Origin: Eimeria praecox
Taxonomy: Eukaryota
Reading direction: 5' to 3'
Length of the DNA stretch: 64,000 nucleotides
NCBI GenBank assembly: GCA_963920595.1
Contig: OY986950.1
Coordinates: forward strand, 5,084,001-5,148,000
Below the pieces are notes generated by a model. The model saw only the letters and a program-made list of their open reading frames with translations. It ran no database searches and was not told where the DNA came from. Shown here in pieces: positions 38,201 through 64,000 of the stretch. The stretch's first letter is position 1; each line of letters begins with the position of its first letter. The translations under genes and the position numbers were made by a program.

Positions 38201-41200
38201 CCTGTAGATAGAATGAAAGTGCCATTAGTGGCGACGGATGCTTTAGCTGCGGTGAACACCCGAACACCCGCTACAATGCCTTTTAGAAGTACTTGGAATC
38301 CCCTAAAAAATCGTGGACGCCTTGGTGAGTCAACCGGGGTCGCGGAAGCGCAAGATAGGACTAGGATTCAGCGGGTCATTCTTTTGGCAACTGGGCAATG
38401 CGTAGGTATTCCAAACGGTGGGCAAGGAACGAAGGTAGCGGCTTATTGCGACGGGTAAAAATGCATCAGGAAGTACGCCGTCGCATGGCAGGACTGTCAT
38501 TTTGAACGTGGCTTAGTATTTGGGAAAGTGTCTTCCTCCATGGCGTGCAGGAGCGAACCCGGGAGCACGAAAAGCGTGGGGCGCGGTTCTGGCTTGATAA
38601 ACGTGCTTTGGTATGTAGCGTAGTGGATCGTAGGCGAATCGGGCATTGCTCTCTGCTGCGCAGTAACTTATATTTCAATATGATACTCCATGCAATTATG
38701 CCGAGAAATCTGGAATCTCTGAATGCATGCAGCTGCTACTTGACCGTTGCAGAAACCATTGGGGAGCGCAGACGTTTTCTAAGGAAACAGGTATTCTGCC
38801 ATGTGTATCGCCTATACCACAACTAGGGCGTAACTATTAATCCGCCTTTTCGCTAGCAGGGCTAGTTAGACTGCCGCAACTGCGCTCCCAATGAGTGAAG
38901 GCGGGTGGTGTACTGGCGCGAGACGGGACTGCTGCCCTTCTGGCTCTATGGTTCGTTGTCAGGCGATATATGCGACGAATGGGTGTACACAACTACCGCG
39001 ACATCTCTTTAGACGATTCACATTCAAAGGCACATCAGTCCACAGCCAGTAATACGGTATATTGGATTGCTACTCCTTCCACCCCTTCAAGCTTACTCAA
39101 CAAATGTCTGACGGCGAGTGCGCATATGTTTGGAAATATTACGGCCTTTTGCTCTTCCCAGGCACTTGGAACGTGCGACGCGTGTGCCGTTTTACCTGGG
39201 CACGGTTTGACTTCACGCAACGATCCGTCGCTGATAGCGGGCCATCCAACACGAGCTTCGTTTTGTGAATGGGCCGCTTTATTAGCAGTTCAAAAGCAGG
39301 GGTACTTGCTCAGCAGAAATCTTTGTGGACTGAGCCGCTTGACTGGAGGTTCAATGGGGTGGATTTTCTTGCAACGATTGCACGCCAATGCAATGCATAC
39401 GCCAGGTGGAGTTGGAGCACACCACAAACACGACAGGCCCGCAGTGAATGCACTGTTGCATCGCTCAGTTAATGTGAAGGCGAGCTTTGAGGTTTTCAGC
39501 GTGATGCGTCTGGAATGGCAAGCGTCGGATTGTTCGAGGCCAAAGCGCACAAGCACGTGTGCTCTTGAATCATGATACAGTCCACCGCTCTGCGTTGCAG
39601 CTGCGCCCGTTGAGAACTGGTATTCGCCTCCGTTTGTAGAACCAGTAGAAACCAAAGCGACGTCCACGCGAGTGTGCGGTAGTTTGCTTGGGGCGTGTTC
39701 GCGTTGCTCACCGAAACGCTGAGGATTCCAGGGCGCGTCATGGAAATTGTGCCGACTTGAGCACGACGGTGGACCTTGCAGAAAAGCATTTGCAGCACAT
39801 GCTATTTTGGGCAATGCTGCACTGGCATGGGATCCTGTGAAGCAGATTGTTGAGGCTTTGCGACTATCTGTTTCGGGCAGATCAGGCCAGTGAGAAAAAA
39901 CGCCTAGAATGCACCCTGTGTGGCGCAGCCTTGTCGCACGTTCGAGAGAGGTTTTGCATGTACGTTTAGAGGTCTGTCTGAGTGTGCAGGCTGTGACACT
40001 TGAACAGCGGCTACCAAGGCTCGATTGTTGGGAAGGCATAATGCATTTGAAACATGGTTGTGGCTTGCTTGTATGGATGCTTATTTCTGCACGCTTGTGC
40101 GTCTGCGCGTGCATGTGCATACACCCTTGTATAGATGAATCCGACAGTTCACGGAGGCCGTTATCAACAGAAAGGAAAATCTACAGGCACAATGAGAAGG
40201 TGGCAGCCTCTCTAGCATGCGGACGGTTTTGTCATATTCACTTCCAGAGCGACCAGACTCTTCACCACGAACTGGGCTTCCTGCAGGAATGCCAAGGCTC
40301 TCAGTGTGCAAATTGCTGCTTGCGTTGGGCGCAGAGAGTACGTTGGGTCGACGTGTATGCAGCACCGCTGGTCGTGACAAAGCATTGTGCTCTCTTTTGA
40401 AGATTTAACAATTCTTAATCGCATCGACCACCGCATATGCTTCGATCTAACTGCTCCGCTAGTACTGGAAAGAAGCAAATTGCGTGGTTGCGCAAAAACC
40501 AGCCTAGACCAATGCGCATAAACAACCACCACGAGATGTCTTTAGACGATTCACATTCAAAGGCAGATCAGTCCACAGCCAGTTATACGGTATATTGGAT
40601 TGCTACTCCTTCCACCCCTTCAAGCTTACTCAACAAATGTCTGACGGCGAGTGCGCATATGCGTCATGTGCATGCGACGATAAATAGGAGGCCAAGAGGA
40701 TCCGCTGCGGGGGAAGCCTTGCTGTTCATCTAACGTTTGTGGGACGCCAAACCATGGGGCGAACGGTTTGCGCTCAACAGTCGGCTACACAATCGCAACA
40801 AAATGTGTAACGTTTAACGCACTGCTTCAGAGGCACGTGAAAGGCTGCGGTGAGAAAGGTTGCAGCCGTTAGTAGAGGGTGCCTTTGGCTTGAAGGGCTT
40901 ATGCAATGTGCAGCAGACACACCTTGTTAGCTGTCTGCAAGGGAGACAGAGTCTAGGCGTCTTATGAGGCAGATGCTGTGGCAGTGCCAACACTTACTGT
41001 ACGCGTACAAGACGAGAGCTGGCGCACCCTCCCTCGGTGCCGCTACCAGCCAGCTTTAATATTGCTCAGGCTCTGCTGCACTGATGTTTCGTACGTTTTT
41101 GTGCATTGTAGGACTGTCAATTTGTTGATTGCAGCAGCTGTGGTTTCTCTAAAAATTGCAGGAGCTTGGGGTGACGCAGAAGCTTGCATGTGCTTGCCCC

Positions 41201-44200
41201 AGGACGACGCGATGAAAAGCCACCCGGTTCAAAGCCTGTCGCTGGGCGCCCCTAAGTCGTTTATGTTACAGTGCCTCCGTTCGTGCCAGCATAGAGTTTT
41301 GAATAGCGGTATGCACAGCACGCACACCTGATAAGGTAGCATTCAATGCGCCAAACTTCATGCTGGAGGCATGTTAAGCCTGAAGAGCAAGCACTTCGAG
41401 TTGCTGGGGAGAGAAAGCCTCATTTTGGCAAGTAGGATGCCAAACCAACTGACATGGAGTTCAGGCAATACACCCTGCGGGCGTTTGTTTAGCAGCGTGT
41501 ACGATGCCTCCCCTTTTATGCAGCATCAAAGACATTTAGGGGGCACCGTAAGCATTGTGGACGTGCGAGCATTCGGGCAGGCGCGAGCTGGCGCTGCTCA
41601 GATATCTCCGGCCTGGTGGGCGGCATGCCAAGCAAGCTGTGCACTCTAGGCGTGCCCATCTCTAAGCGCCCAATCGAAACACTGTATGCGCAGCTAAGTT
41701 TGTCCTGAGTTACGCTACCCCAACAGCGCTTCATTATGGCAGCATTCTCCAAAGCAAGTACGGGCCTATATCATGCCTGGGCGAGTTGAACTGGCCAGTC
41801 AGTTTACGCCGGTACTACACCAAGGTCCGCATTGAATATGCATAACTGTCTGTTCAACCACTGGAAAGACCAGTTGCGCCTACCGTAAACGCTTTTGGTT
41901 TGGGAGTATGATTTGCCTGGATTGGCAAGCGTCGGATTCTCCGAGTCCAGAGTGTACGCGCACATGCGCCTTTGTTGCATGAGGTGGTCCTCCATTGCCG
42001 AATACCCTGCGTTGCAGTTGCAGTCATCGAGGCTTGGGTGTTCGCCCCTGTGTGTAGGACCAGCGAAAACCGCAAAGACGTGCACGCCGTTGTGCGCTGA
42101 TCTGCTTGTGGGCGCGTTTGCGTCGCTCAACGTTTGGCTGTGGATTCCAGGGCTCGCGATGGGAATTGTGCTGACTTGAGCACGGCAGTAGATCTCACAG
42201 GGTAGCAGATTGAGCGCGTGCTATTCTAAATGAAGTTGCAGTGGAATTTGTAAGCCGTGTGCGCTACTGATAAGCGAGTGAGTGTCAGTATGCTGGCATC
42301 TGTGCATCACCAGGGCAGGTGCAGTGACGTGCACCCAACAGTAATTGCCATGCAGGTACCTTTTTCTTCGGCACACGCACTATTACCAGAGCTTCGCTAA
42401 AACCATGCACGTCTATCGGAAGCTGGAAGTCTGCACAGTAGGCTCGAGCTTCGTACCACTGTCCCTCGACAGAACACAGGATGGTCTAAACGCCGATTTA
42501 TTGGAAGGCCGTGATTGGGCAGTCACATGCTGACTTGCTGCAATTGCAGTGGTTCTAAAGCTTCTTAGAAAGGAGTGGAATGGGTTCCAGATGGTTCGCA
42601 TATGCTTGCAGGCGCTTTGGAAGCTTTGCAGTGGACATAGGACTAAATCTGCAGGATAGTGGAAGCCTTGAATACGTGCTTCGAGGATAGCATAGCTGCC
42701 GTTAGATGCCTCGTTTTGGCTTGTATGGATCGTAGAGTTGGGCTGTGGAATTGGCGATCGACACGATGAGTTGTCCTCAACCATTGTAGTTTTCAATGCT
42801 ACATTAGGCTGTGCATGAATCTCTAGAGATACCTAAGACGGAATTTAGTCCTGCAGAATGGACCACAGCAGGAAGCGCGCACTGCCGTTTCGATTGCTGG
42901 ACACGGTCAGCACGTTTAGAGGACACCAGGTGCTGCGTGGTGGATACGGTTCCAGCAGGGTAGTGGATTGCCTGCAAGGACGGCTGGCAGTATGGAAGCA
43001 CATGACCAACTTCAAACAGCGCCCGGCTTCCCTGAGAGTAGCGTTGGTCCTCTAGCAGTGCCAAAACGTCCCGCCCGTAAAGGAATTCAATGTGTAGATA
43101 GATGTGACCAATTTCTCGGTGCATGCTTGGCCGTTTCGGAGCTCCGTGTTCTGTAGCACCACTGCTTGGAAGTATTACGGCCTTTTGCTTTTCCCAGGCA
43201 CTTGGAACGTGCGACGCGTGTGCCGTTTTACCTGGGCACGGTTTGACTTCACGCAACGACCCGTCGCTGATAGCGGGCCATCCAACACGAGCTTCGTTTT
43301 GTGAATGGGCCGCTTTATTAGCAGTTCAAAAGCAGGGGTACTTGCTCAGCAGAAATCTTTGTGGACTGAGCCGCTTGACTGGAGGTTCAATGGGGTGGAT
43401 TTTCTTGCAACGATTGCACGCCAATGCAATGCATACGCCAGGTGGAGTTGGAGCACACCACAAACACGACAGGCCCGCAGTGAATGCACTGTTGCATCGC
43501 TCAGTTAATGTGAAGGCGAGCTTTGAGGTTTTCAGCGTGATGCGTCTGGAATGGCAAGCGTCGGATTGTTCGAGGCCAAAGCGCACAAGCACGTGTGCTC
43601 TTGAATCATGATACAGTCCACCGCTCTGCGTTGCAGCTGCGCCCGTTGAGAACTGGTATTCGCCTCCGTTTGTAGAACCAGTAGAAACCAAAGCGACGTC
43701 CACGCGAGTGTGCGGTAGTTTGCTTGGGGCGTGTTCGCGTTGCTCACCGAAACGCTGAGGATTCCAGGGCGCGTCATGGAAATTGTGCCGACTTGAGCAC
43801 GACGGTGGACCTTGCAGAAAAGCATTTGCAGCACATGCTATTTTGGGCAATGCTGCACTGGCATGGGATCCTGTGAAGCAGATTGTTGAGGCTTTGCGAC
43901 TATCTGTTTCGGGCAGATCAGGCCAGTGAGAAAAAACGCCTAGAATGCACCCTGTGTGGCGCAGCCTTGTCGCACGTTCGAGAGAGGTTTTGCATGTACG
44001 TTTAGAGGTCTGTCTGAGTGTGCAGGCTGTGACACTTGAACAGCGGCTACCAAGGCTCGATTGTTGGGAAGGCATAATGCATTTGAAACATGGTTGTGGC
44101 TTGCTTGTATGGATGCTTATTTCTGCACGCTTGTGCGTCTGCGCGTGCATGTGCATACACCCTTGTATAGATGAATCCGACAGTTCACGGAGGCCGTTAT

Positions 44201-47200
44201 CAACAGAAAGGAAAATCTACAGGCACAATGAGAAGGTGGCAGCCTCTCTAGCATGCGGACGGTTTTGTCATATTCACTTCCAGAGCGACCAGACTCTTCA
44301 CCACGAACTGGGCTTCCTGCAGGAATGCCAAGGCTCTCAGTGTGCAAATTGCTGCTTGCGTTGGGCGCAGAGAGTACGTTGGGTCGACGTGTATGCAGCA
44401 CCGCTGGTCGTGACAAAGCATTGTGCTCTCTTTTGAAGATTTAACAATTCTTAATCGCATCGACCACCGCATATGCTTCGATCTAACTGCTCCGCTAGTA
44501 CTGGAAAGAAGCAAATTGCGTGGTTGCGCAAAAACCAGCCTAGACCAATGCGCATAAACAACCACCACGAGATGTCTTTAGACGATTCACATTCAAAGGC
44601 AGATCAGTCCACAGCCAGTTATACGGTATATTGGATTGCTACTCCTTCCACCCCTTCAAGCTTACTCAACAAATGTCTGACGGCGAGTGCGCATATGCGT
44701 CATGTGCATGCGACGATAAATAGGAGGCCAAGAGGATCCGCTGCGGGGGAAGCCTTGCTGTTCATCTAACGTTTGTGGGACGCCAAACCATGGGGCGAAC
44801 GGTTTGCGCTCAACAGTCGGCTACACAATCGCAACAAAATGTGTAACGTTTAACGCACTGCTTCAGAGGCACGTGAAAGGCTGCGGTGAGAAAGGTTGCA
44901 GCCGTTAGTAGAGGGTGCCTTTGGCTTGAAGGGCTTATGCAATGTGCAGCAGACACACCTTGTTAGCTGTCTGCAAGGGAGACAGAGTCTAGCCGTCTTA
45001 TGAGGCAGATGCTGTGGCAGTGCCAACACTTACTGTACGCGTACAAGACGAGAGCTGGCGCACCCTCCCTCGGTGCCGCTACCAGCCAGCTTTAATATTG
45101 CTCAGGCTCTGCTGCACTGATGTTTCGTACGTTTTTGTGCATTGTAGGACTGTCAATTTGTTGATTGCAGCAGCTGTGGTTTCTCTAAAAATTGCAGGAG
45201 CTTGGGGTGACGCAGAAGCTTGCATGTGCTTGCCCCAGGACGACGCGATGAAAAGCCACCCGGTTCAAAGCCTGTCGCTGGGCGCCCCTAAGTCGTTTAT
45301 GTTACAGTGCCTCCGTTCGTGCCAGCATAGAGTTTTGAATAGCGGTATGCACAGCACGCACACCTGATAAGGTAGCATTCAATGCGCCAAACTTCATGCT
45401 GGAGGCATGTTAAGCCTGAAGAGCAAGCACTTCGAGTTGCTGGGGAGAGAAAGCCTCATTTTGGCAAGTAGGATGCCAAACCAACTGACATGGAGTTCAG
45501 GCAATACACCCTGCGGGCGTTTGTTTAGCAGCGTGTACGATGCCTCCCCTTTTATGCAGCATCAAAGACATTTAGGGGGCACCGTAAGCATTGTGGACGT
45601 GCGAGCATTCGGGCAGGCGCGAGCTGGCGCTGCTCAGATATCTCCGGCCTGGTGGGCGGCATGCCAAGCAAGCTGTGCACTCTAGGCGTGCCCATCTCTA
45701 AGCGCCCAATCGAAACACTGTATGCGCAGCTAAGTTTGTCCTGAGTTACGCTACCCCAACAGCGCTTCATTATGGCAGCATTTTCAATAGCCTGTGCGTG
45801 CCTTTATCAAGGCTGGGCGGGTTGAACTGGCCAGTCAGTTTACGCCGGTACTACACCAAGGTCCGCATTGAATATGCATAACTGTCTGTTCAACCACTGG
45901 AAAGACCAGTTGCGCCTACCGTAAACGCTTTTGGTTTTGGAGTATGATTTGCCTGGATTGGCAAGCGTCGGATTCTCCGAGTCCAGAGTGTACGCGCACA
46001 TGCGCCTTTGCTGCATGAGGTGGTCCTCCATTGCCGAATACCCTGCGTTGCAGTTGCAGTCATCGAGGCTTGGGTGTTCGCCCCTGTGTGTAGGACCAGC
46101 GAAAACCGCAAAGACGTGCACGCCGTTGTGCACTAGTCTGCTTGTGGGCGCGTTTGCGTCGCTCAACGTTTGGCTGTGGATTCCAGGGCTCGCGATGGGA
46201 ATTGTGCTGACTTGCGCACGGCAGTAGGCCTCGCAGAAAGGCATCTGCAACACAGCTATATTTTAGCTTCACTTGCGTTCACATAGGTTCCCTTGTTTGG
46301 AGTGTTGAAGGCGAGTAGTTGTTAGTGTTATACGTGCACGTAGAGCGTTATGGGGAGCAAATGGTGTCCAAGTCAGCCCTGTTGCATCTGCGCTTCTCTC
46401 CTTCGAAAGCCCGAGAAGCACGATGTGTGCATGCACGGTGTGCAGGCGTGTAGAAGGCTTTCTTTCTTCAATGAAGACTTTGCTTGGACGGCTCTGGCGC
46501 ACGACGGGGAGCCACGTGAAACGCGTAGTTGTGAACAACAGAGGAATTCTGTTGGCCTAACCGTTCGGCTCATGAGAGAGCACGAAGTTTGTGGGTAGTT
46601 TTACTGCACGGGGAAGCTGTAGTGGCAGTCCGTTCCCTTGTGCTCGAAGTCGTTTTGCATTATTTAGACAAGTAAGCAGGCAGGAAGCGCAACCGACCTA
46701 CTGATGTTCTGTACTATGTAGAAAAGGCAAACCTGAAGGCCGCCACAGTACGTGTGGTCGCTGACCATCGTTCAGGCTAAGACGTTGAGACAGGCGGCGC
46801 ATGGCATGCTTGTGTTCGAGACAGTCAGAGATGGGAATACAGAATTGCAGCACGACTTGCTAGGGACATCATTTCATAGTGGTAGAGAAGTAGCTGACGT
46901 GTCTACTAGTTCGTGAGCGCAGATGGAAAGCCTCTGCCTTGACTGAAACACATGCATTACAGTTGCAGCGCATAGCCAGGCAGGTCTCTACCTGTCATGC
47001 TTCTCAGCAGCGCTGAGCGCTGCTGAGAAGCATGACAGGCCTACCATGAGGTTGCACAGGCAGCGTAAGGGTGGTGTAGGTGTTGTGAGAAGATTGGACC
47101 CTGAGGGCGGCGCTCGCAAGCGCGTAGAGACGTGGACGTCGGCGCATTTGTTTTGGGGTACCGCAGCTGTGGTTAGCAAATTCTTTCTCCTTTGTGAGCG

Positions 47201-50200
47201 TGAGCGCAAACATTATCAAGGCAAGGATTCCATGTTTGCAAGGCACCAGAAGATCACCGGCTTCCGTACAGGAGGCTGTGCCAAACGTAATGCTTGCTTT
47301 GAAGGAGGGGATGGCTGAATATGAGGGTGGGTTGGGGGCCGTTCCATCATGAACCAGAATGCTGAGTTTTTGCGACTATCTGTTTCGGGCATATCAGATC
47401 AGGGCCAAACGGCTTCCTAGACTGCGCGTTGTGTGATGCAGTGTCTTGTCAAGTTGGAATGAGGTTATGCCTATATTTTTAGAGGTAGGTCTGAGTGTGC
47501 ATGCCTTGACACTTGAGCAGCGACTATGACGGCTCGTTTGTTTGGCTGGCAAGATGCATTCGAAGTGCCACGGTGAGTTGTTTGTTCGGTTGTATGCGGC
47601 GTTTGTCATTGGGTCTGCGTGGGTGTGTGCATGCATCCGTGTTTAGCTTAATCACATAGTTTAGGCACCTACCTACTACTGGCGAAAGGCACAGCGTGAG
47701 GATAAGGGCCTCTTTAGCATGTGGTCGGGCTTGCCGCATTGACGACCAGGGCAGCCTTTATCGTCCCTACGAAATTGGCTGCTTGCAAGGATGTGAAGAC
47801 TCCTGCTTGGCGTGTCCTTGCGTGAGGGCGGCACAGGGTGTACGATGGCTAGAGGCGTCTGCATCATCATTGGTCTATGGAAAGCACAACGTTCTGCTGT
47901 AGAACATTTCAGACTTAGCAGTCGTGCTGTGAACGTCATGCGCTGCGTGTTAGAAGCCATGCTTTGCTAGCAAAAGCGAGACCACAATGCTGCGTGGTTA
48001 GGTTGGAAAAGCGCATAGATGACAAAGCCGAAACAGCCAACCAGCATCAAATATTGTTATCTCTTGGCGATCCATGACCAGCGAGATGCAGGTCTAGAGC
48101 AAGCAGCATCGTGCATGGCCTTGCTACTACTCTGAGGTGATACATCGACTACGTTCCAGCGAGTGCGCTGATATGTGTTGCGTCTTTTGTGTGTCCAGCA
48201 TAAGGATGTCTAGGGGCTTAGTCGCCGGAAACGCGATGTTGTTTGTAGCGCTTTTGAGAGAACCGAACCCCGGATGCCTATAACGTACGCTGAGTGTTGC
48301 TCGCCACCACAGCAGTAAAAGGACTGGCGTTACAAGACGCCATGCTTCAGGCACACGTGAAAGTGCTGAATGAAGGAGGTTGAAGCTGGTGGTTGAGGGC
48401 GCCTGTACCTGGGAGGGCATGCGCAGACGCGTGTCAAACGCACGGCTCTGGCAGCCTCCATCGAAGCTGGAGTCCTCGAGGCGTGTGCGGTTGTTAACAT
48501 GGCAGTGGCAAAAGTATATCCTACAGTGGATGGCCGGTAGTAGAGCTGTTTTGCCTGGGTCTCGCTACGGGCGATGCTCGATATGGCCTTTTGTACCAGT
48601 TGAACGGATGCTTGGTAGGTTATTAATTGGTTGTAAGCAGGACGCCATCCTGGTGTTGCAGGTGCAGTTTGTCTACCTACGCTGCTGCATAAGCGTGATA
48701 TGAGGTGCACGTGTTATTGCCCGTTTCACCCAAGGTTAGAAGAGAAACCCAGGAGGGTAAAGGGCTGTTGCTAAGCGCCCTTAGCGGGGGTAAGCTGGAG
48801 AGCCTAGGTTCCTCTTTGCATAGAGATTTGCTTATCTGAAGGCGAAAGCGAAACGGGGCCAGATAGTAGAATGGCCTTCTAGCCGGCCTATTGCATGCTG
48901 GAGATGCGCGTGGCGCGCATGGCGAATAGTTAGTGTTGCTGGAGAGAGACGGCCTCTTTTTGGCAAGTAGGATGCCGAACCAACTGATATGGAGTTCAGG
49001 CAATACACCCTGCGGGCGTTTGGTTGGCAGAGTGTACGGTGCCTCGCCTTATACGCAGCATCACAGGCATTTAGGGGGCACCGTAAGCAGTTTGGAGGTG
49101 CAGGCATTCAGGCAGGCGCGAGCTGGCGCTGCTCAGATATCTCCGGCCTGGTGGGCGGCATGCCAAGCAAGCTGTGCACTCTAGGCGTGCCCATCTCTAA
49201 GCGCCCAATCGAAACACTGTATGCGCAGCTAAGTTTGTCCTGAGTTACGCTACCCCAACAGCGCTTCATTATGGCAGCATTCTCCAAAGCAAGTACGGGT
49301 CTATATCATGCCTGGGCGGGTTGAACTGGCCAGTCAGTTTACACCGGTACTACACCAAGGTCCGCATTGAATATGCATAACTGTCTGTTCAACCACTGGA
49401 AAGACCAGTTGCGCCTACCGTAAACGCTTTTGGTTTTGGAGTATGATTTGCCTGGATTGGCAAGCGTCGGATGCTCCGAGTCCAGAGTGTACGCGCACAT
49501 GCGCCTTTGTTGCATGAGGTGGTCCTCCATTGCCGAATACCCTGCGTTGCAGTTGCAGTCATCGAGGCTTGGGTGTTCGCCCCTGTGTGTAGGACCAGCG
49601 AAAACCGCAAAGACGTGCACGCCGTTGTGCACTAGTCTGCTTGTGGGCGCGTTTGCGTCGCTCAACGTTTGGCTGTGGATTCCAGGGCTCGCGATGGGAA
49701 TTGTGCTGACTTGCGCACGGCAGTAGGCCTCGCAGAAAGGCATCTGCAACACAGCTATATTTTAGCTTCACTTGCGTTCACATAGGTTCCCTTGTTTGGA
49801 GTGTTGAAGGCGAGTAGTTGTTAGTGTTATGCGTGCACGTAGAGCGTTATGGGGAGCAAATGGTGTCCAAGTCAGCCCTGTTGCATCTGCGCTTCTCTCC
49901 TTCGAAAGCCCGAGAAGCACGATGTGTGCATGCACGGTGTGCAGGCGTGTAGAAGGCTTTCTTTCTTCAATGAAGACTTTGCTTGGACGGCTCTGGCGCA
50001 CGACGGGGAGCCACGTGAAACGCGTAGTTGTGAACAACAGAGGAATTCTGTTGGCCTAACCGTTCGGCTCATGAGAGAGCACGAAGTTTGTGGGGAGTTT
50101 TACTGCACGGGGAAGCTGTTGTGGCAGTCCGTTCCCTTGTGCTCGAAGTCGTTTTGCATTATTTAGACAAGTAAGCAGGCAGGAAGCGCAACCGACCTAC

Positions 50201-53200: not shown

Positions 53201-56200
53201 GAGAGTGGGGTGTAGGCAATTCTGTCATGAAGCAGGATGCTGAGGTTTTGCGACTATCGGTTTCGGGAATACGAGATCAGGGCAAAACAGCTTCCTAGAC
53301 TGCGCGTTGTGTGATGCAGTGTCTTGTCAAGTTGGAATGAGGTTATGCCTATTTTTTTAGAGGTAGGTCTGAGTGTGCATGCCTTGATACTTGAGCAGCG
53401 ACTATGACGCTCGTTTGTTTGGCTAGCCAGATGCATTTGAAGTGCCACGGTGAGTTGCTTGTTCGGTTGTATGAGACGTTTGTTGATGGGTCTGTGTGTG
53501 GGCGTGCATGTATCCGTTATACCTCAGTCGCACAGTTTAGGCAGGCGGTTATTATTAGGAAAAGGCACAGTGTGAAGACAGCGGCCTCTCTGGCATGTGG
53601 TCGAGTTTGCCGCATTGGCTGGCAGGTCAGCCAGGTTCTTCACTAAGCAATGGACAGCTCAGAAGATTGTAAATCCGCGCCGTATGCAAATGATTGGCTG
53701 CGTGTGTGTCGCAGAGAGTACGATGGCTAGAGGCGTGTGCACCCTCAATGATATTGACAAAGCATTATGGCTTGGCGTAAATTGCGGTGATTTCGTACTC
53801 ACCTCGTGGGAGCCATTCGAAGCATCTTAGCATGCGTGCTACACGGGTGATACTTGGGAGTGCCAAAATGCGTGTTTGCATTCAGCAGAGCTTAGCGAAT
53901 ACCGTCACGACATCTAGGCAGCACCTACCGTTGTCTTCTGCCGGCGACTCATAATCAACCAGAGAATTGTTTGCAGCAAGGAACATCGTGCTTTGCATTG
54001 ATAGTCGCTTTAGGCGACGCGTCGACTACGTTCCAGGAAGTGCGATGCTATATCCTGCATTTGCATCCAGAGGAAAAACGCATAGGTTCTTGGGTGCCGG
54101 AGACGCGATATAAATTGCGGCATTCTCTGGCGAGACCAAACCAGAACGCCCATAAGGTACGCTGAGTGTTGCTCGCCACCATTGCAATAAAAGGACTGAC
54201 GTTGCAAGACACCGTGCTTCAGAGGTACGTGAAAGTGCTGAATGATAGAGGTTGTAGCTGATGGTTGAGGGCGCCTTTACCTTGGAGGACATGCGCGGTT
54301 GTGTGGGGGAAGCAGGCCAATGGCAGTGCGCAACGAATTTGCAGCCTTGGCGGAGTATGGGGTAGCTGGTGAAGGCGTCAATACAATACAATCATACGAC
54401 AGTGGAAGGCCGGTTGTGGAGCTGTTTTGCATGCCTCTGGCTAAGGGCCACGCTCGATGTGGCTTTTTGTGCCGGATGAACTGACGCTTGGTAGATTATT
54501 AATTGGCTGTAAGCATGGCGCCATGCTGGTGTTGCAGGTGTGGTTTGTCTACCTACGCTGCTGCATAAGCGTGGAATGATCTGCGCGTGCTAACGCGCTT
54601 TCCGCCGAGCAGCAGGGCATAATGGCACCGCGAGGCACTCCGGAGAGAGCATATCCGTTATATGTGTATAGCGTTTTGAATAGCAGATAGCAAACACAAG
54701 TAAAAGATCAACGGTGGAGTAGATTTCTCTGCGGCATGTTGGATGCAAGGGATACACTAGTGTGGCGCGGAGGGGCGAAACCGATATATTGGAGAGAGCA
54801 GGCCCTTTTGTGGGACGTAGAGAGTCGAAGGATCTGACATTAGGTACACACCCTACAAGGGCCACGATTTTCTGGAGCAGAGCGTACGATGCGTCGTCAT
54901 GTATGCAGCATCGTTGTCCAGTTCAAGGCATCCACCTCAGCAGAGACGCTGGAGAGTCAATCTCTATCATGCCCATACTAACCCATGCGTTGCATTCGAA
55001 CGTTAGTATAGGTAGCTTTGAAGCGCAGCGTGATGCGTGTGGAAGTTGAATATAGGTTATGGAATCGTGTTTGGACAGGCGGTGCATGCCATGCTTGTTT
55101 TCGGGTGTTTCCGGCAATAGCGGTGTACTGGTATAGCATATCGGTGGCGGGGACGTGATTTATACAGTGCCAAAATAGCTATTTTGTTTACTAGATAGTG
55201 CGTGCAGACCAGAGGCATGCGCCTGGACTAGAACAGATGCCTTGTACTAAGTGCCGGAAGCAAGTGATGCTTGGGCTCTTCCTTTAGCGCTGCTGGGAGC
55301 GCTGATCTGTGTACGGTGAGGTTGCGTATGCTGGGTCATGGGGTGTTAGGGTTTCTTGTGAGAGTGGACCCTGCAGAGGGTGTTGGCAACTGCGTGCAAA
55401 CGTCCACGTCAGGGCGTTTGGTTTTAGGGCACGGCAGCGGTCGTTAACGAGCTTTTTCTCCTTTGTGAGCGTGAGCGCAAACATTATCAAGGCAAGGATT
55501 CCATGTTTGCAGGCCTCCAGAAGATCGCCGGTGTCCGTAGAGTAGGCTGCGCCAAACGTATTGTTTGATTTGAAGGAGAGGATGGCTGAATATGAGGGTG
55601 GGGTGCAGACCGTTCCGTCATGAAGCAGGATGTTGAGGTTTTGCAACTATGTGTTTCGGACATATCAGATCAGGGCGAAACGGCTTCCTAGAATGCGCTT
55701 TGTGTGATGCAGTGTCTTGTCAAGTTGGAATGAGGTTATGCCTCTATTTTTATAGGTAGGTCTGAGTTTGCATTTCGTGACACTTGAGCAGCTGCTATGA
55801 CGGCTCGTTTGTTTGGCTGGCAAGATGCATTTGAACTGCCACGGTGAGTTGTTTGTTCGGTTGTATGCGACGTTTGTTGATGGGTCTGTGTGTGCGTGTG
55901 CATGTATCCGTGTATAGATCAGTCACACAGTTCAGGCAGGCAGTTATTAACGGCAAAAGGCACAGCGTGAGGATAAGGGCCTCTCTGGCATGTGGTCGGG
56001 TTTGCCGCATTGACTGGCAGGACAGCCAGGCCCTTTGCTAGGCAATGAGCAGCTCAGAATATTGTAAAGCCAAGGCCTGTGCTCCCCTGTAGATTTGGCT
56101 CACTTCGTAGTCGCATCAGGGGCGTCATTCCACGCGTTTTAGGACACACGGTACGGTACTGATACTGAGGAGCAGCAAAATGCGTGCTTGCATCCAGCTG

Positions 56201-59200
56201 TGTGTAGGCGACACCGTCAAAGCATGGAGGCATAACAAAAAGGTGTTGTCGTTAGGCAATTCGCGAACAACCAGAAATTATCTTAAAGCCACTAATGCAC
56301 TGCGCTGGTTTCTCACTCTTCTGATGCGCCACATCGACTACGTTTCAGGCAGTGCGCAGACACCTCCGAGGCTGTTTCCAGACGAACGATGTCAAGGTTC
56401 TTGGGCGCGGGAGACGCGATATTAATTGCGGCATTCTCTGGCGAGACCAAGCCAGAAGGCCCATAAGGTACGCTGAGTGTTGCTCGCCACCATTGCAATA
56501 AAAGGACTGACATTACAAGACACCGTGCTTCAGAGGTACGTGAAAGTGCTGAATGATAGAGGTTGCAGCTGATGGTTGAGGGCGCCTTTACCTTGGAGGA
56601 CATTCTCGGTTGTGTGGGGGAAGCAGGCCAGTGGCAGTGCGCAACGAATTTGCAGCCTTGGCGGAGTATGGGGTAGTTGGTGAAAGCGTCAATACAGTAC
56701 GGGCATACGACAGTGGACGGCCCGTAGTGGAGCTGTTTTGCATGCCTCTGGCTAAGGGCCACGCTCGATGTGGCTTTTTGTGCCGGATAAACTGACGCTT
56801 GGTAGATTATTAATTGGCTGTAAGCATGGCGCCATGCTGGTTTTGCAGGTGTGGTTTGTCTACCTACGCTGCTGCATAAGCGTGGAATGATCTGCGCGTG
56901 CTAACGCGCTTTCCGCCGAGCAGCAGGGCATAATGGCACCGCGAGGCACTGATGGAAAAGCATATCCGTTATGTGTGTATAGCGTTTTGAATAGCAGATA
57001 GCAAACACAAGTAAAAGATCAACGGTGGAGTAGATTTCTCTGCGGCATGTTGGATGCAAGGGATACAGTAGTGTGGCGCGGAGGGGCGAAACCGATATAT
57101 TGGAGAGAGCAGGCCCTTTTGTGGGACGTAGAGAGTCGAAGGATCTGACATTAGGTACACACCCTACAAGGGCCACGATTGTCTGGAGCAGAGCGTACGA
57201 TGCGTCGTCATGTATGCAGCATCGTTGTCCAGTTCAAGGCATCCAACTCAGCAGAGACGCTGGAGAGTCAATCTCTATCATGCCCATACTAACCCATGCG
57301 TTGCATTCGAACTTTAGTATAGGTAGCTTTGAAGCGCAGCGTGATGCGTGTGGAAGTTGAATATAGGTTGTGGAATCGTGTTTGGACAGGCGGTGCATGC
57401 CATGCTTGTTTTCGGGTGTTGCCGGCATAGGATTGTACAGCATGCGCTACTCGGGCCGTTCCATGCGCAGCGCCAAAGTAGCTAGCTTGCCTGCTAGCTA
57501 GTCTGCGCCGACAAAGCGCATCCGTCTTCAGCATAGCTAATGCCTTACTGTTGCACGTAATAAGCCAGTGCTGCTTCTTCTTTAGGTCTATCTGTGTGGC
57601 GAACAACGGCAGGCGTGGTGTACCGTGAGGTTCAGCATGCTGCATAAGGGTGCTTTAGGTGTTGTGAGGAGATTCGACCCTGCAGGCGGCGCTGGCAAGG
57701 GCCCGCAGACGTGGACGTCGGTGCATTTGTTTTGGGGTACCGCAGCTGTGGCTATCAAGGTTTTTCTCCTTTGTGAGCGTGAGCGCAAACATTATCACGG
57801 CAAGTATGCCATGTTTGCGAGGCACGAGAAGATCACGGGTGCCCGTAGGGTGTCCGTAGAGTAGGCTGTGCCAAACGTATTGTTTGCTTTGAAGGAGGGG
57901 ATGGCTGAATATGAGAGTGGGGTGTAGGCAATTCTGTCATGAAGCAGGATGCTGAGGTTTTGCGACTATCGGTTTCGGGAATACGAGATCAGGGCAAAAC
58001 AGCTTCCTAGACTGCGCGTTGTGTGATGCAGTGTCTTGTCAAGTTGGAATGAGGTTATGCCTATTTTTTTAGAGGTAGGTCTGAGTGTGCATGCCTTGAT
58101 ACTTGAGCAGCGACTATGACGGCTCGTTTGTTTGGCTAGCCAGATGCATTTGAAGCGCCATGGTGAGTTGTTTGTTCGGTTGTATGAGACGTTTGTTGAT
58201 GGGTCTGTGTGTGGGCGTGCATGTATCCTTGTATAGCTCAATTACGCAGTTCAGGCAGGTGGTTGTAAATCGCAAAAGGCACAGTGTGAAGACAGCGGCC
58301 TGTCTGGCATGTGGTCGAGTTTGCCGCATTGGCTGGCAGGTCAGCCAGGTTCTTCACTAAGCAATGGACAGCTCAGAAGATTGTAAATCCGCGCCGTATG
58401 CAAATGATTGGCTGCGTGTGTGGCGTAGACAGTACGATGGCTAGAGGCGTGCTCAACCTCATTGATATTGACAAAGCATTATGGTTTGCCGTAAATTGTG
58501 GTGATTTCGTATTCGCCTCGTTAGGCCCATCCGAAGCGTCCTAGGAGGCAAGCTTCGCGGGCGTTATTCGGGAGCACTAAAGTGCGTATTTGCATTCAGC
58601 AGAGCCTAATGGACACCTTCACAACACGCAGGAATCACTAAACGGTGTTAACATTGGGCGATTCACGATCAAACAAAAACTAGGTTACAGCCAGGAACGC
58701 AGTTCACCGCATTGGTACTGCCGTTACGCAGCAAATTGACTGCGTTCCAGCGAGTGAGCAGGCACATCCTACCGCTGCTTCGGGACGGACGACGTCATGT
58801 ATGACAAGGGCCTTTCTGCCGGTTGAACTGATGTTTGGAAGATTATTAATTGGCTGTAAGCATGGCGCCATGCTGGTTTTGCAGGTGTGGTTTGTCTACC
58901 TACGCTGCTGCATAAGCGTGGAATGATCTGCGCGTGCTAACGCGCTTTCCGCCGAGCAGCAGGGCATAATGGCACCGCGAGGCACTGATGGAAAAGCATA
59001 TCCGTTATGTGTGTATAGCGTTTTGAATAGCAGATAGCAAACACAAGTAAAAGATCAACGGTGGAGTAGATTTCTCTGCGGCATGTTGGATGCAAGGGAT
59101 ACAGTAGTGTGGCGCGGAGGGGCGAAACCGATATATTGAAGAGAGCAGGCCCTTTTGTGGGACGTAGAGAGTCGAAGGATCTGACATTAGGTACACACCC

Positions 59201-62200
59201 TACAAGGGCCACGATTGTCTGGAGCAGAGCGTACGATGCGTCGTCATGTATGCAGCATCGTTGTCCAGTTCAAGGCATCCAACTCAGCAGAGACGCTGGA
59301 GAGTCAATCTCTATCATGCCCATACTAACCCATGCGTTGCATTCGAACGTTAGTATAGGTAGCTTTGAAGCGCAGCGTGATGCGTGTGGAAGTTGAATAT
59401 AGGTTGTGGAATCGTGTTTGGACAGGCGGTGCATGCCATGCTTGTTTTCGGGTGTTGCCGGCATAGGATTGTACAGCATGCGCTACTCGGGCCGTTCCAT
59501 GCGCAGCGCCAAAGTAGCTAGCTTGCCTGCTAGCTAGTCTGCGCCGACAAAGCGCATCCGTCTTCAGCATAGCTAATGCCTGACTGTTGCACGTAATAAG
59601 CCAGTGCTGCTTCTTTTTTAGGTCTATCTGTGTGGCGAACAACGGCAGGCGTGGTGTACCGTGAGGTTCAGCATGCTGCGTAAGGGTGCTTTAGGTGTTG
59701 TGAGGAGATTCGACCCTGCAGGCGGCGCTGGCAAGGGCCCGCAGACGTGGACGTCGGTGCATTTGTTTTGGGGTAACGCAGCTGTGGCTATCAAGTTTTT
59801 TCTCCTTTGTGAGCGTGAGCGCAAACATTATCACGGCAAGTATGCCATGTTTGCGAGGCACGAGAAGATCACGGGTGTCCGTAGGGTGTCCGTAGAGTAG
59901 GCTGTGCCAAACGTATTGTTTGCTTTGAAGGAGGGGATGGCTGAATATGAGAGTGGGGTGTAGGCAATTCTGTCATGAAGCAGGATGCTGAGATTTTGCG
60001 ACTGTCGGTTTCGGGAATACGAGATCAGGGCAAAACAGCTTCCTAGACTGCGCGTTGTGTGATGCAGTGTCTTGTCAAGTTGGAATGAGGTTATGCCTAT
60101 TTTTTTAGAGGTAGGTCTGAGTGTGCATGCCTTGATACTTGAGCAGCGACTATGACGGCTCGTTTGTTTGGCTGGCAAGATGCATTTGAAGCGCCATGGT
60201 GAGTTGTTTGTTCGGTTGTATGAGACGTTTGTCATTGGGTCTGTGTGTGGGCGTGCATGTATCCTTGTATAGCTCAATTACGCAGTTCAGGCAGGTGGTT
60301 GTAAATCGCAAAAGGCACAGTGTGAAGACAGCGGCCTGTCTGGCATGTGGTCGAGTTTGCCGCATTGGCTGGCAGGCCAGCCAGGTTCTTCACTAAGCAA
60401 TGGATAGCACAGAAGATTGTAAATCCGCGCCGTATGCAAATGATTGGCTGCGTGTGTGTCGCAGAGAGTACGATGGCTAGAGGCGTGCTCAACCTCATTC
60501 GTGTTTGCAGAGATCTGTTCTGCTGTAAAAGATTTCAGACTTTGCAGCCGCATCGCGGACATCATGCGATGCGTGTTAGGATGTATGCTACGCTGCCAGT
60601 ATTGGGGAGGACAATGTTTCATGCATGCGTTGAAGAGGGTCCAAACAAATGGTTCTAGACACCCACCACGAGATGGTGTTACCTTTAGGCGATCCATGAC
60701 CAGCGAGATGCAGGCTTAGAGAGAGCAGCATCGTGCATTGCCCTGCTACTACTCTGAGGCGATACATCGACTACGTTCCAGCGAGTGCGCTGATATGTGC
60801 TGCGTCTTTTGTGTGTCCAGCATAAGGATGTCTAGGGGCTTAGTCGCCGGAAACGCGATGTTGTTTGTAGCGCTTTTGAGAGAACAGAACCCAGGAGGCC
60901 TATAACGTACGGTGAGTGTTGCTCGCCACCACAGCAGTAAAAGGACTGGCGTTACAAGACGCCATGCTTCAGGCACACGTGAAAGTGCTGAATGAAGGAG
61001 GTTGAAGCTGGTGGTTGAGGGCGCCTGTACCTGGGAGGGCATGCGCAAACGCGTGTCAAACGCACGGCTCTGGCAGCCTTCATCGAAGCTGGAGTCCTCG
61101 AGGCGTGTGCGGTTAACATGGCAGTGGCAAAAGTATATCCTACAGTGGATGGCCGGTAGTAGAGCTGTTTTGCCTGGGTCTCGCTACGGGCGATGCTCGA
61201 TATGGCCTTTTGTATCAGTTGAACGGATGCTTGGTAGGTTATTAATTGGTTGTAAGCATGGCGCCATGCTGGTGTTGCAGGTGCGGTTTGCCTACCTTCG
61301 CTGCTGCATAAGCGTGGAATGATCTGCGCGTGCTAACGCGCTTTGCGCCGAGCAGCATGGCATAACGGCACCGCGAGGCACTCATGGAAGACCATATCGG
61401 TTAGGTGTATATAGCGTTTTGAATAGCAGATGGAGAACACAAGGGAATCATCAACGGCGAGGTAGATATATCTGTGGCGTGGTGAGTGCAAGGGATACAG
61501 TAGTAGGGCGCGGGGGGGCCAAACAGATATATTGGGGAGATCAGGGCCCCTTGTGGGACGTATAGCGCCGAATGGGCTGATGTGAGGTTCACACCCTACA
61601 AGGGCCACGATTTTCTGGAGCAGAGTGTACGTGGCGTCGCCTTGAATTTAGTAGCGTTGTCCAGTTCAAGATATCGAACAGAGCATCCTTCGCTACTATG
61701 ACCACACTAGTAAATGCGTTGCATTCGAATGTTAGCATAGGTAGCTTTGAAGGGCAGCGTGATGCGTGTGGAAGTTGAATATAGGTTATGGGATCGTGTT
61801 TGGAGAGGTGGCTCATGCCATGTCTGTTCTGAAGAGAAGCCGGGAATAGGGTTGTAACGTTGCAGCATGCGTAGCTAGGAACGTCATTTATACAGGGGTA
61901 GAGTTGCTACCTTGCCTGCTAGTTTGTGCGTGCCGATCAGAAGCCTCTGCCCCCACTAGAACGCATGCCTTATAGTCGCAGGGCATAGGCTGATGGCGGT
62001 TTTGCTTTTCGTATCCTGCTGCTGAGAACGCCAGCAGGTATACAGTAATCGTGTGTCTGCTGCATAATGGTGTTTTAGGTGTAGTGAGCACATTGGACCT
62101 TGCATGCGGTATTGGCAAGCGCGTGCAAACGTCGACGTCAGCGCATTTGATTTGGGGTACCGCAGGTGTGGCTCGCAAGTTCTTTCAAGTTCTTTCTCCT

Positions 62201-63294
62201 TTGTGAGCGTGAGCGCAAACGTTATCAAGGCAAGGATTCCATGTTTGCGAGGAACGCGGAGATCACCGGTGTACGTAGAGTAGGCTGTGCCAAACGTCAT
62301 GCTTGCTTTGAAGGAGCGGAAGGCTGAATATGAGGGTGGGGTGCAGACCGTTCCGTCATGAAGCAGGATGTTGAAATTTTGCGACTACCTGCTTCGGACA
62401 TATCAGATCAGGGCGAAGCGGCTTCCTAGCTTGCGCGTTGTCTGTTCGAGCCTCTTGTCAAGTTGGAGTGAGGTTATGCCTCTATTTTTATAGGTAGGTC
62501 TGAGTGTGCAAGTCGTGACACTTGAGCAGCTGGTATGACGGCTCGTTTGTTTGGCTGGCAAGATGCATTTGAACTGCCACGGTGAGTTGTTTGTTCGGTT
62601 GTATGAGACGTTTATTAATGATTCTGTGTGTGCGTGAGCATGCATCCGTGTATACGTCGATCACACAGTTCAGGCAGCCGGTTATTAATAGCAAAAGGCA
62701 CAGTGTGAGGATAACGGCCTATCTGGCATGTGGTCGGATTTTGCCGCATTGACCGGCATAGCGGCGATTATCGTCTCTACGTAATTAGGTGCTTGCAAGG
62801 ATGTGAAATCTCCTGCTTGGCGTGTCCTTACGTGAGCGTGGTACAGGGTGTACGATGGCTAGAGACGTCTGCATCATCATTGGTCTATGGAGAGCACTAT
62901 GTTCTGCTGTAGAGCATCTCAAGGTTCGCAGGCGTGGTGTGAACGTCATGCGCTGCGTGTTAGAAGGCATGCTTTCCTCACAAAAGGGAGAGCGCAATGC
63001 CTCCCGTTCAGGTTGACAAAGGGCTTGGGCGACAAAGTAGAAACAGCCAGCTAGCACCAAACATAGCTCTCTCTTGGCGCTCCATGACGCACCAGATGCA
63101 GGTCTAGAGCAAGAAGCATCGTGCATTGCCTTGCTACTACTCTTAGGCGACACATCGGCTACGTTTCAGCGAGTGCTCTGATATGTACTGCGTCGTTTGT
63201 GTGTCCAGAAGAAGGATATATAGGGGCTTAGGAGCGGGAAACGCGAGGTTGCTTGTAGCGCTTTTGAGAGAACAGAACCCAGGAGGCCTATAAC
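39..63294 (+). CDS. Putative giant micro-exon gene (internal portion), made of ~130 candidate 3-nt single-codon exons plus a few 12-nt exons; predicted Ala/Glu/Arg/Gln/Lys-rich helical or coiled-coil-like protein
   Basis: Recurrent (C/T/A)AG-NNN-GT(A/G)NG on the + strand, e.g. tcagGAAgtacgc 10039, tcagGCAgtaagc 21063 and 22971, tcagGCGgtaagc 27678. About 79 sites lie in the non-repetitive 8.3-38.5 kb, against roughly 7-11 expected if bases were uniform (about 1 per 2.7-4.1 kb). No stop codons were noted among the triplets and 51 of 79 encode Ala or Glu. Gene ends are not visible, and more than one gene is possible. Confidence 0.75.
9069..18200 (+). CDS. Run of 18 candidate 3-nt micro-exons reading AEREALEAERAQEVKAQL
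   Basis: First base of each: GCT 9069, GAA 10039, CGA 10761, GAG 11385, GCT 11933, CTT 12609, GAA 14048, GCA 14858, GAA 15198, CGA 15922, GCA 16058, CAA 16666, GAA 16829, GTT 16891 (very short upstream intron, doubtful), AAA 17259, GCC 17413, CAA 18014, TTA 18198. Each is flanked by AG and GT(A/G)NG. Spacing is wider and less regular here, so a few may be chance hits. Confidence 0.6.
19348..24022 (+). CDS. Dense run of 19 candidate 3-nt micro-exons reading ATVEAAAAAAAAEEAAKRA
   Basis: GCA 19348, ACA 19532, GTT 19806, GAA 20061, GCG 20350, GCT 20644, GCA 20879, GCA 21063, GCT 21213, GCA 21472, GCT 21743, GCA 22113, GAA 22415, GAA 22687, GCA 22971, GCT 23160, AAA 23439, AGA 23720, GCA 24020. 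Implied introns are 147-367 nt. Only 1-2 such sites are expected by chance in 4.7 kb. Confidence 0.82.
24217..26512 (+). CDS. Sparse candidate micro-exons (P, E, A, A)
   Basis: CCA 24217 (cag/gtgcgc), GAA 24798 (cag/gtgagc), GCG 26044 (cag/gtacgc), GCG 26510 (cag/gtgaga). The gaps contain weaker or decayed-looking sites, such as tgcatcagGGTgtcatg at 25351. Confidence 0.5.
27678..38472 (+). CDS. Run of 38 candidate 3-nt micro-exons reading AAAREARKAAEAAAQTPIREALTYQLAAAAQEAVAEEE
   Basis: First bases: 27678, 27969, 28260, 28526, 28790, 28886, 29171, 29424, 29535, 30203, 30463, 30570, 30822, 31073, 31357, 31480, 31584, 31867, 32103, 32338, 32806, 33085, 33297, 33531, 33774, 34105, 34344, 34662, 34870, 35394, 35890, 36191, 36492, 36783, 37380, 37551, 37805, 38470. 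All match AG-NNN-GT(A/G)NG and most are 200-330 bp apart. Confidence 0.75.
35870..37620. repeat. Old diverged duplication: ~35870-35955 resembles ~37530-37615, each centred on a micro-exon candidate
   Basis: ggtacagCAAgtgtgtagcaaagtgtcgcggctgctcagcactgagc vs ggtacagGAAgtgtgtggcaaagcggtgtggctggtcagcactgcgc; offset 1661. Confidence 0.7.
38990..39128. repeat. ~140-bp segment also present at ~40523-40661 and ~44559-44697; marks the left edge and a rearrangement junction of the array
   Basis: tctttagacgattcacattcaaagg...ctgacggcgagtgcgcatatg occurs three times. After 39128 the sequence jumps to the block matching 43166. Confidence 0.9.
39130..46226. repeat. Direct repeat of ~3.06 kb (39130-42190 and 43166-46226, offset 4036) separated by ~1 kb of different sequence
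   Basis: Identical ORFs at +4036 (39290/43326, 39909/43945, 40978/45014). The copies are near-identical apart from a divergent patch at 41745-41780 vs 45781-45816. Confidence 0.95.
40335..63294 (+). CDS. Candidate micro-exons at homologous positions of the ~2.0-2.4-kb repeat units
   Basis: Site a: CGT 41496/45532, AGT 49031, AGC 52480/54881/57192/59228, AGT 61624. Site b: TTC 46910, TTA 50417, CTA 52786, ATA 55195, CTA 57498/59534, TTT 61923. Site c: AGA 40335/44371, GGT 47837, ACA 51333, AGA 53715, ACA 58429, AGA 60465, GGT 62847. Site d: CGA 48160, GAA 51636/54037, GCA 56349, CGA 58751/60782/63170. 12-nt site e: 51744, 54145, 56456, 60895, 63283. Others: CAA 41755, CCT 45791, CAA 49290, AGT 41951/45987/49486, CGA 42275. 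Confidence 0.65.
45436..51237. repeat. Direct repeat of ~2.3 kb (~45436-47740 and ~48935-51237, offset 3499-3507)
   Basis: ORF pairs 45840/49339, 46269/49768, 46988/50495 and 47046/50553, plus direct sequence identity with diverged ends. Confidence 0.92.
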
Positions 63295-64000
63295 GTACGC
63301 TGAGTGTTGTTGGCCGCCACAGCAGTAAAAGGACTGGCGTTATAAGACGCCGTGCTTCAGGCACACGTGAAAGTGCTGAATGAAGGAGGTTGAAGCTGGT
63401 GGTTGAGGGCGCCTGTACCTGGGAGGGCATGCGCAGACGCGTGTCAAACGCACGGCTCTGGCAGCCTTCATCGAAGCTGGAGTCCTCGAGGCGTGTGCGG
63501 TTGTTAACATGGCAGTGGCAAAAGTATATCCTACAGTGGATGGCCGGTAGTAGAGCTGTTTTGCCTGGGTCTGGCTACGGGCGATGTTCGATATGGCCTT
63601 TTGTATCAGCTGAATGGATGCTTGGTACGTTATTAATTGGTTGTAAGCATGACGCCATGCTGGTGTTGCAGGTGCGGTTTGTCTACCTACGCTGGTGCAT
63701 AAGCGTGGAATGATCTGCGCGTGCTAACGCGCTTTGTGCCGAACAACAATGCATAATTGCACCGCGTTGCGCTCTGGGAAGCGCATATCCGATAGGTGCG
63801 TAAAGCGTTTTGAATAGCAGATGGCGAACGCAAGGAAACGATCAACAGTGAAGGTGATTTCTCTGCGGCGTGTTGAATGCACGGGATACTGTAGTGGGGC
63901 GCGGAAGGGCGAAACCGATATATTGGAGAGAGCAGGCCCCCTTGTGGGACGGAGGGTGTGGAGCGTGAACGAGCGAACTGACGATATTTTCACACGCTGC

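Follow-up and report, generated by a model that had tools for sequence, protein, structure and literature searches.

A probable chain of single-codon exons across a 64-kb stretch of the Eimeria praecox genome

A chain of 3-nt sites on the plus strand

We analyzed a 64,000-nt stretch of the Eimeria praecox genome (contig OY986950.1 of assembly GCA_963920595.1, positions 5,084,001 to 5,148,000 of the forward strand), here called the window, in which AG and GT repeatedly enclose a single nucleotide triplet. A first-pass annotation had described such sites in repeats at 39 to 64 kb and proposed that they are micro-exons with splice sites under purifying selection and a variable codon between them. 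On the evidence of the sequence, we consider it probable that a single plus-strand gene, very long and rich in introns, uses the sites as exons of one codon each (3 nt, phase 0) and that the 39- to 64-kb region consists of duplicated intron-exon blocks. The micro-exon model is strongly supported, mainly by the nonrepeated region at 19 to 39 kb (the core), which the annotation did not cite.

AG-NNN-GT sites with a spliceosomal consensus are enriched on the plus strand in all eight segments (P = 0.046 to 3 × 10−24). The signal has the form YAG-NNN-GTRHG(Y), with the gap fixed at 3 nt, and the learned motif combines a YAG acceptor with a donor of spliceosomal type (GT R M G C T); a test of the splice consensus likewise found, on one strand, a GTRAGY-like donor with a G at +5 and a YAG acceptor. 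The pattern occurs 122 times in the window, 81 times in sequence that is not duplicated, compared with an expected number of about 10 there, and we count about 70 nonredundant sites (about 100 in total) over at least 64 kb. The chain is densest in the core, where a simple pattern yields 67 sites at spacing 3 versus 1 to 18 for the remaining spacings; the minus strand has 5. Outside the duplications, the chain includes three runs, a few members of which may be chance matches, and a sparser stretch:

19348..24217, plus strand: run of 21 candidate single-codon exons, steps of at most 340 nt (12 Ala and 3 Glu codons)
27577..29535, plus strand: run of 10 candidate single-codon exons, steps of at most 340 nt (pattern scan)
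30203..36783, plus strand: run of 28 candidate single-codon exons, steps of at most 340 nt (pattern scan)
8300..19000, plus strand: sparser stretch of 3-nt sites (15 sites versus 2.5 by chance)

For a held-out test, we trained a model on one half of the core, leaving the triplet unscored, and applied it to the other half, with simulated sequence as the chance level. This gave 22 sites at spacing 3 (0.30 by chance) and no more than 2 at any other spacing from 0 to 30. With the halves reversed, 26 sites were found (0.40 by chance), and the minus strand gave none in either direction. Elsewhere, the core-trained model found 7 sites at 8.3 to 19 kb and 16 in the repeats, the latter versus 0.93 by chance. 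Exon lengths up to 60 other than 3 showed no excess, and within 0 to 30 only length 3 was enriched. Exons of 1 or 2 nt were considered in a gap of the chain (24145-25870), where strong donors have an AG 1 or 2 bases upstream (lengths of 1, 2, 1, and 2, with a sum of 6), and were rejected as likely chance matches with weak acceptors.

Most of the intervening spacers in the core (53 of 66) measure 90 to 330 nt, with about 250 nt being typical. The core is not a satellite, as its spacers are essentially unrelated to each other (946 pairs; mean score of 17.4 versus a null of 16.7). The window has no match in Rfam and only four tiny tandem repeats, and the core spacers contain no tandem array. A tandem origin of the core introns would be faint at most: three pairs score 30 to 34 against a null maximum of 25, and no lag is prominent. 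Each of the 32 bins of the window (∼51% GC) has a positive GC skew, which fits a single long direction of transcription.

Coding signal in the triplets

None of the 122 triplets is a stop, compared with 4.1% in the background. When the core triplets are joined, frame 0 is open and the other frames contain 2 and 4 to 5 stops, a result that depends on a complete site list. The core is rich in Ala and Glu, and codons for A, E, K, R, Q, and L account for 55 of its 67 triplets, versus 40.7 after column shuffling (0 of 2,000 shuffles reached 55). Among the Glu, Gln, and Lys codons, NAA was found 13 times and NAG twice (P = 0.005); NAG should be avoided if a second AG inside the exon rivaled the one at the acceptor.

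Duplicated blocks and their sites

The right-hand part of the window is a mosaic array whose units are 53 to 92% alike over their whole length and up to 99% alike in parts. Aligning the units placed the sites of families c, d, and a in homologous columns. The array and its candidate exons, by family, are as follows:

39127..64000 and beyond the window end, plus strand: mosaic array of duplicated multi-exon blocks, units of ∼2.0 to 4.0 kb
40335..40337, plus strand: family c candidate 3-nt exon, AGA; copies at 44371 (AGA), 47837 (GGT), 51333 (ACA), 53715 (AGA), 58429 (ACA), 60465 (AGA), and 62847 (GGT) (alignment)
48160..48162, plus strand: family d candidate 3-nt exon, CGA; copies at 51636 (GAA), 54037 (GAA), 56349 (GCA), 58751 (CGA), 60782 (CGA), and 63170 (CGA, with T at +5) (alignment)
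40648..40650, plus strand: family d homologue with the acceptor AG lost (GG), reading gacgg-CGA-gtgcgc; likewise at 39115 and 44684
41496..41498, plus strand: family a candidate 3-nt exon, CGT; copies at 45532 (CGT), 49031 (AGT), 52480, 54881, 57192, and 59228 (all AGC), and 61624 (AGT) (alignment)
46910..46912, plus strand: family f candidate 3-nt exon (ctag-NNN-gt, seven copies), TTC; copies at 50417 (TTA), 52786, 57498, and 59534 (all CTA), 55195 (ATA), and 61923 (TTT) (alignment)
41755..41757, plus strand: family e candidate 3-nt exon, CAA; copies at 45791 (CCT) and 49290 (CAA) (alignment)
41951..41953, plus strand: family b candidate 3-nt exon, AGT; copies at 45987 and 49486 (alignment)

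The letters reported by the first-pass annotation are accurate: all 15 coordinates given for c (8 sites) and d (7 sites) read as described, the T at 63170 is the only exception to the donor +5 G among them, and the eight a sites read CGT, AGT, or AGC, including the synonymous Ser change AGC/AGT. The divergence of flanking DNA that it described is also found, with some copy pairs being only ∼55 to 65% alike over 120-nt flanks, against ∼50 to 55% for unrelated sites. The persistence of AG and GT was overstated. Most copies keep both, but AG is lost at three d copies, the c site is deleted in the unit at 55.6 to 56.3 kb (near 56071), and the b homologue near 39546/43582 has neither AG nor GT. The d homologue at 40648 lies 313 nt after c, and d lies 303 to 323 nt after c in other units; from its sequence, this homologue and those at 39115 and 44684 are likely dead exons.

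Family f, which the annotation did not mention, has a hydrophobic codon in every copy and a weak donor (GTCTGC) at 52786, 57498, and 59534. Site e keeps AG and GT intact amid 11 differences clustered within 40 nt; this cluster in an otherwise 99% identical block fits gene conversion. A candidate 12-nt exon at 51744-51755, with homologues in four other units, has a strong donor and a weak acceptor and was not accepted; its AG is lost in the 48.3-kb copy.

Paralogous unit copies are separate contigs in two sequencing runs (X1 and X2), in a comparison covering the copies apart from the triplet columns themselves, which argues that the array is not an assembly artifact. The end of an X1 contig at 54754 matched, by eye, none of the aligned units and suggests further copies beyond the window. 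At the left edge of the array, a 155-bp piece (38974-39128) is 93% alike to 40507-40661 and ends just past the dead d site at 39115. A near-perfect palindrome of ∼50 bp, present in two repeat units only (46989-47042 and about 50496-50549), may be a small insertion. No metagenome contig matched a conserved 27-mer of the repeats. A second duplication lies at the other end of the window:

1..8294, plus strand: tandem duplication with a 3,991-bp unit, 99.7% identical; 6 weak 3-nt sites per unit versus 1.5 by chance

With a stricter trained splice model, no site passed in the first tandem unit of this duplication.

Splice letters appear constrained, and the codon changes at the intron rate

To compare the columns of the repeats, we built local trees from 150 nt on each side of the sites, omitted copies that were identical or nearly so (7 of 8 copies were used for c, 8 of 10 for d, 5 of 8 for a, and 5 of 7 for f), and counted changes per column. 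The AG and GT columns of a, c, d, and f show 1 change where the flanking columns predict 16.1, so these letters look constrained. For families a, c, and d alone, the 1 change compares with 12.9 expected (P = 3.5 × 10−5). Only 1 to 8 of ∼250 background quads per family are equally invariant. The +5 column has 1 change versus 4.0 expected (P = 0.09).

As the sites tested on local trees had been picked for being kept, controls on the eight-unit alignment were added. When the sites were defined by a splice model whose training excluded the repeats, four of six high-scoring 3-nt families were kept, compared with 1 of 32 low-scoring families (P = 0.001). Compared with high-scoring families of other lengths (2 of 14 kept), the difference gave a P value of 0.037, and P values of 0.059 and 0.09 at two other thresholds. 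Constraint on the splice letters of the repeats is thus moderately supported. The earlier claim of purifying selection is backed by the local trees and the model-defined families and is weakened by the lost sites and by two further controls given below.

The triplet columns themselves are not unusually variable. They show 13 changes versus 12.6 expected at the intron rate (P = 0.49), and families a, c, and d taken by themselves show 9 versus 10.0. In this comparison, which has low power, the codon thus varies as much as intron DNA and no more. This bears on the suggestion in the first-pass annotation that diversifying selection may act on the codon flanked by the conserved splice sites, a reading that we consider highly improbable. 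In its favor, most triplet changes alter the residue, and AG..GT ranks first among 256 dinucleotide pairs for conserved flanks with at least three triplets (5 of 95 such cases). However, the changes occur at the neutral rate, some are synonymous (at a and f), the f codon is always hydrophobic, and the a codon is Ser in six of eight copies.

Alternative explanations

A number of results weigh against reading the sites as coding exons of one gene. Third-position coding tests are not significant (P = 0.30 and 0.65), nor is helical periodicity in two of three tests (P = 0.20, 0.40, and 0.04), though the autocorrelation looked helical, and the codon bias could stem partly from splicing preferences or from descent from GCA/GAA ancestors. 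No ordinary exon, start, or Pfam domain was found in the window (no Pfam match in the 64 open reading frames [ORFs] scanned, of 169 listed), and the sites may belong to several genes rather than one. No clear enrichment of a branch-point motif was seen upstream of the acceptors (CTRAY, 5 of 67 versus 5.0 in controls; TRAY, 39 versus 28.8). In the repeats, sites are two to three times sparser than in the core, and many acceptors score poorly. In a naive control that takes all AG..GT pairs, spacing 3 is kept in 5 of 42 cases, which is unexceptional next to 0 to 8 of 32 to 58 at other spacings. At the deepest split there is no excess either (3 of 8 kept at spacing 3 versus 29 of 105 at all spacings), and the triplets of the repeats change neutrally.

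The results from the repeats, from the naive control to the low site density, together with the lost sites, are what one would expect if the core chain were real and the sites at 39 to 64 kb were decaying relics, their conservation reflecting the picking of survivors and gene conversion. We regard this as rather unlikely: the single AG/GT change was counted in locally diverged columns, where few background quads are equally invariant, families defined by the splice model are kept far more often when they score high (4 of 6 versus 1 of 32), and site e retains its splice letters within a cluster of differences. The splice sites might instead serve as stepping stones for the piecewise removal of a very long intron, or lie in a noncoding RNA, so that the triplets are untranslated. 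The lack of any ordinary exon or domain and the intron-like rate of the repeat triplets fit such a role, which nevertheless appears very unlikely, as the held-out core tests showed no enrichment of zero-length sites (AG abutting GT; 0 sites), stop triplets are absent, and frame 0 carries a bias at the amino acid level.

Repeats can mimic the pattern: a 23-bp minisatellite in a metagenome locus (L001) gives the same AG-NNN-GT excess, and duplication inflates the counts at 39 to 64 kb. On such grounds, the motif could be a protein-binding site present at scattered positions, or what remains of a satellite or mobile element. The unrelated core spacers with no tandem array in them, the strict strand bias, and the exact donor and acceptor consensus around a variable triplet make this explanation extremely unlikely. 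The minisatellite was the one locus with a 3-nt excess among 13 found in a scan of the metagenome for a two-exon pattern, and it has no similarity to the window; the scan thus yielded no relative. The minisatellite (L001, 5521-6555, in an AT-rich, CpG-poor contig) has a unit that reads as a 20-nt GT..AG segment plus GCA and may either imitate the pattern or consist of very short introns in series. The TGCATGCA motif is enriched in the noncoding DNA of coccidian (Eimeria-like) genomes; in the window, it is not enriched (2 observed versus 2.9 expected).

Comparison with known systems and sequencing runs

In truffle nank genes, 3-bp exons number in the tens to dozens and are alternatively spliced (PMC4986451, PMC13449251, PMC9815663). 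These genes resemble the present case in having many 3-bp, frame-neutral exons bounded by GT-AG introns, here recognized by sequence statistics alone. Their alternative splicing has been reported in transcripts, whereas the candidate exons of the window were identified from DNA. The truffle genes also encode NACHT and ankyrin domains; no such domain was found in the 64 of 169 ORFs scanned, and it could lie outside the window, off which the gene runs. The present case differs further in its Ala/Glu-rich core, in a span of at least 64 kb in which no ordinary exon was found, and in the duplication of 2- to 4-kb multi-exon blocks.

The micro-exon genes (MEGs) of Schistosoma have very short exons, introns of up to 5 kb, and secreted products; their exon length is given as 3 to 81 bp in the abstract and as 6 to 81 bp, mostly 15 bp, in the introduction of the same paper (PMC10526429). 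MEGs and the predicted gene are alike in architecture, with very short coding exons set among introns that are much longer. The window has essentially one exon length (3 nt), spacers of ∼250 nt, and no signal peptide exon that we found. MEG exon lengths are multiples of 3, which holds here as well. In animals, isolated 3-nt microexons occur, for example, in MAP4K5 (PMC8632122). These too are three-base exons between AG and GT, but those that the source describes stand singly among ordinary exons, whereas here they form runs of 20 or more. A literature search that covered few subscription papers returned no report of apicomplexan micro-exon genes or of runs of 3-nt exons and no chain of 3-nt exons longer than this one; the original truffle paper could hold comparable counts. 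The design is known in kind, and the present case differs by its scale, the near-absence of other exon lengths, its composition, and its block duplication.

In sequencing runs X1 to X3, contigs cover exons and spacers alike, with no GT..AG joints; X1 is near-identical to the window, may be from the same strain, and is not independent biological support. A fourth run (X4; share, 0.08) gave two short pieces at 19 to 39 kb and nothing at 53.6 to 55.0 kb, and we draw no conclusion from it. Position 26795 is T in the window, whereas the X1, X2, and X3 contigs that span it have C; the T is probably an assembly error. An X3 contig of depth 7 (others are at about 1,000) is roughly 85% alike to 36946-37391 and possibly comes from a related organism present at a low level.

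Proposed mechanism and significance

If the single-codon-exon gene is real, intron definition would remove the short spacers of its long pre-mRNA in succession, and the mRNA would gain a codon with every step. In the protein, the core would specify a low-complexity segment that is rich in Ala and Glu and probably helical, and the repeats would contribute a short recurring motif (Ser, a hydrophobic residue, Arg/Thr/Gly, and Arg/Glu/Ala) whose residues appear weakly constrained and would drift at the intron rate. The 39- to 64-kb array may have arisen by unequal crossing-over and conversion of multi-exon blocks. Skipping or loss of a one-codon exon would remove one residue and leave the frame unshifted; such frame-neutral loss would explain why single sites are dead (the AG-to-GG change at d and the deletion of c) while most are kept. 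Exon skipping that yields length variants would be plausible by analogy.

More tentatively, the window may belong to a protein-coding gene, longer than 64 kb, that devotes a separate exon to each of more than a hundred successive residues, with no ordinary exon between them. Residues would be gained and lost exon by exon as well as by block duplication, and combinatorial skipping could generate variants. Such a gene would represent the most extreme exon fragmentation that we found, in a lineage for which we found no earlier report. The weight of the finding lies in this larger gene; a diversifying codon, being unsupported, would add nothing to it.

Should this reading hold, around a hundred splicing steps would be spent on ∼300 coding bases. 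The exons would be too short for two-sided recognition, and the gene would be a natural setting in which to study how intron-defined splicing proceeds in order and how accurate it has to be. Genes of this type evade gene finders and short-read aligners and would therefore be missing from annotations. The duplicated blocks, in which exons would die without a frameshift, would offer a direct view of how proteins gain and lose residues one at a time.

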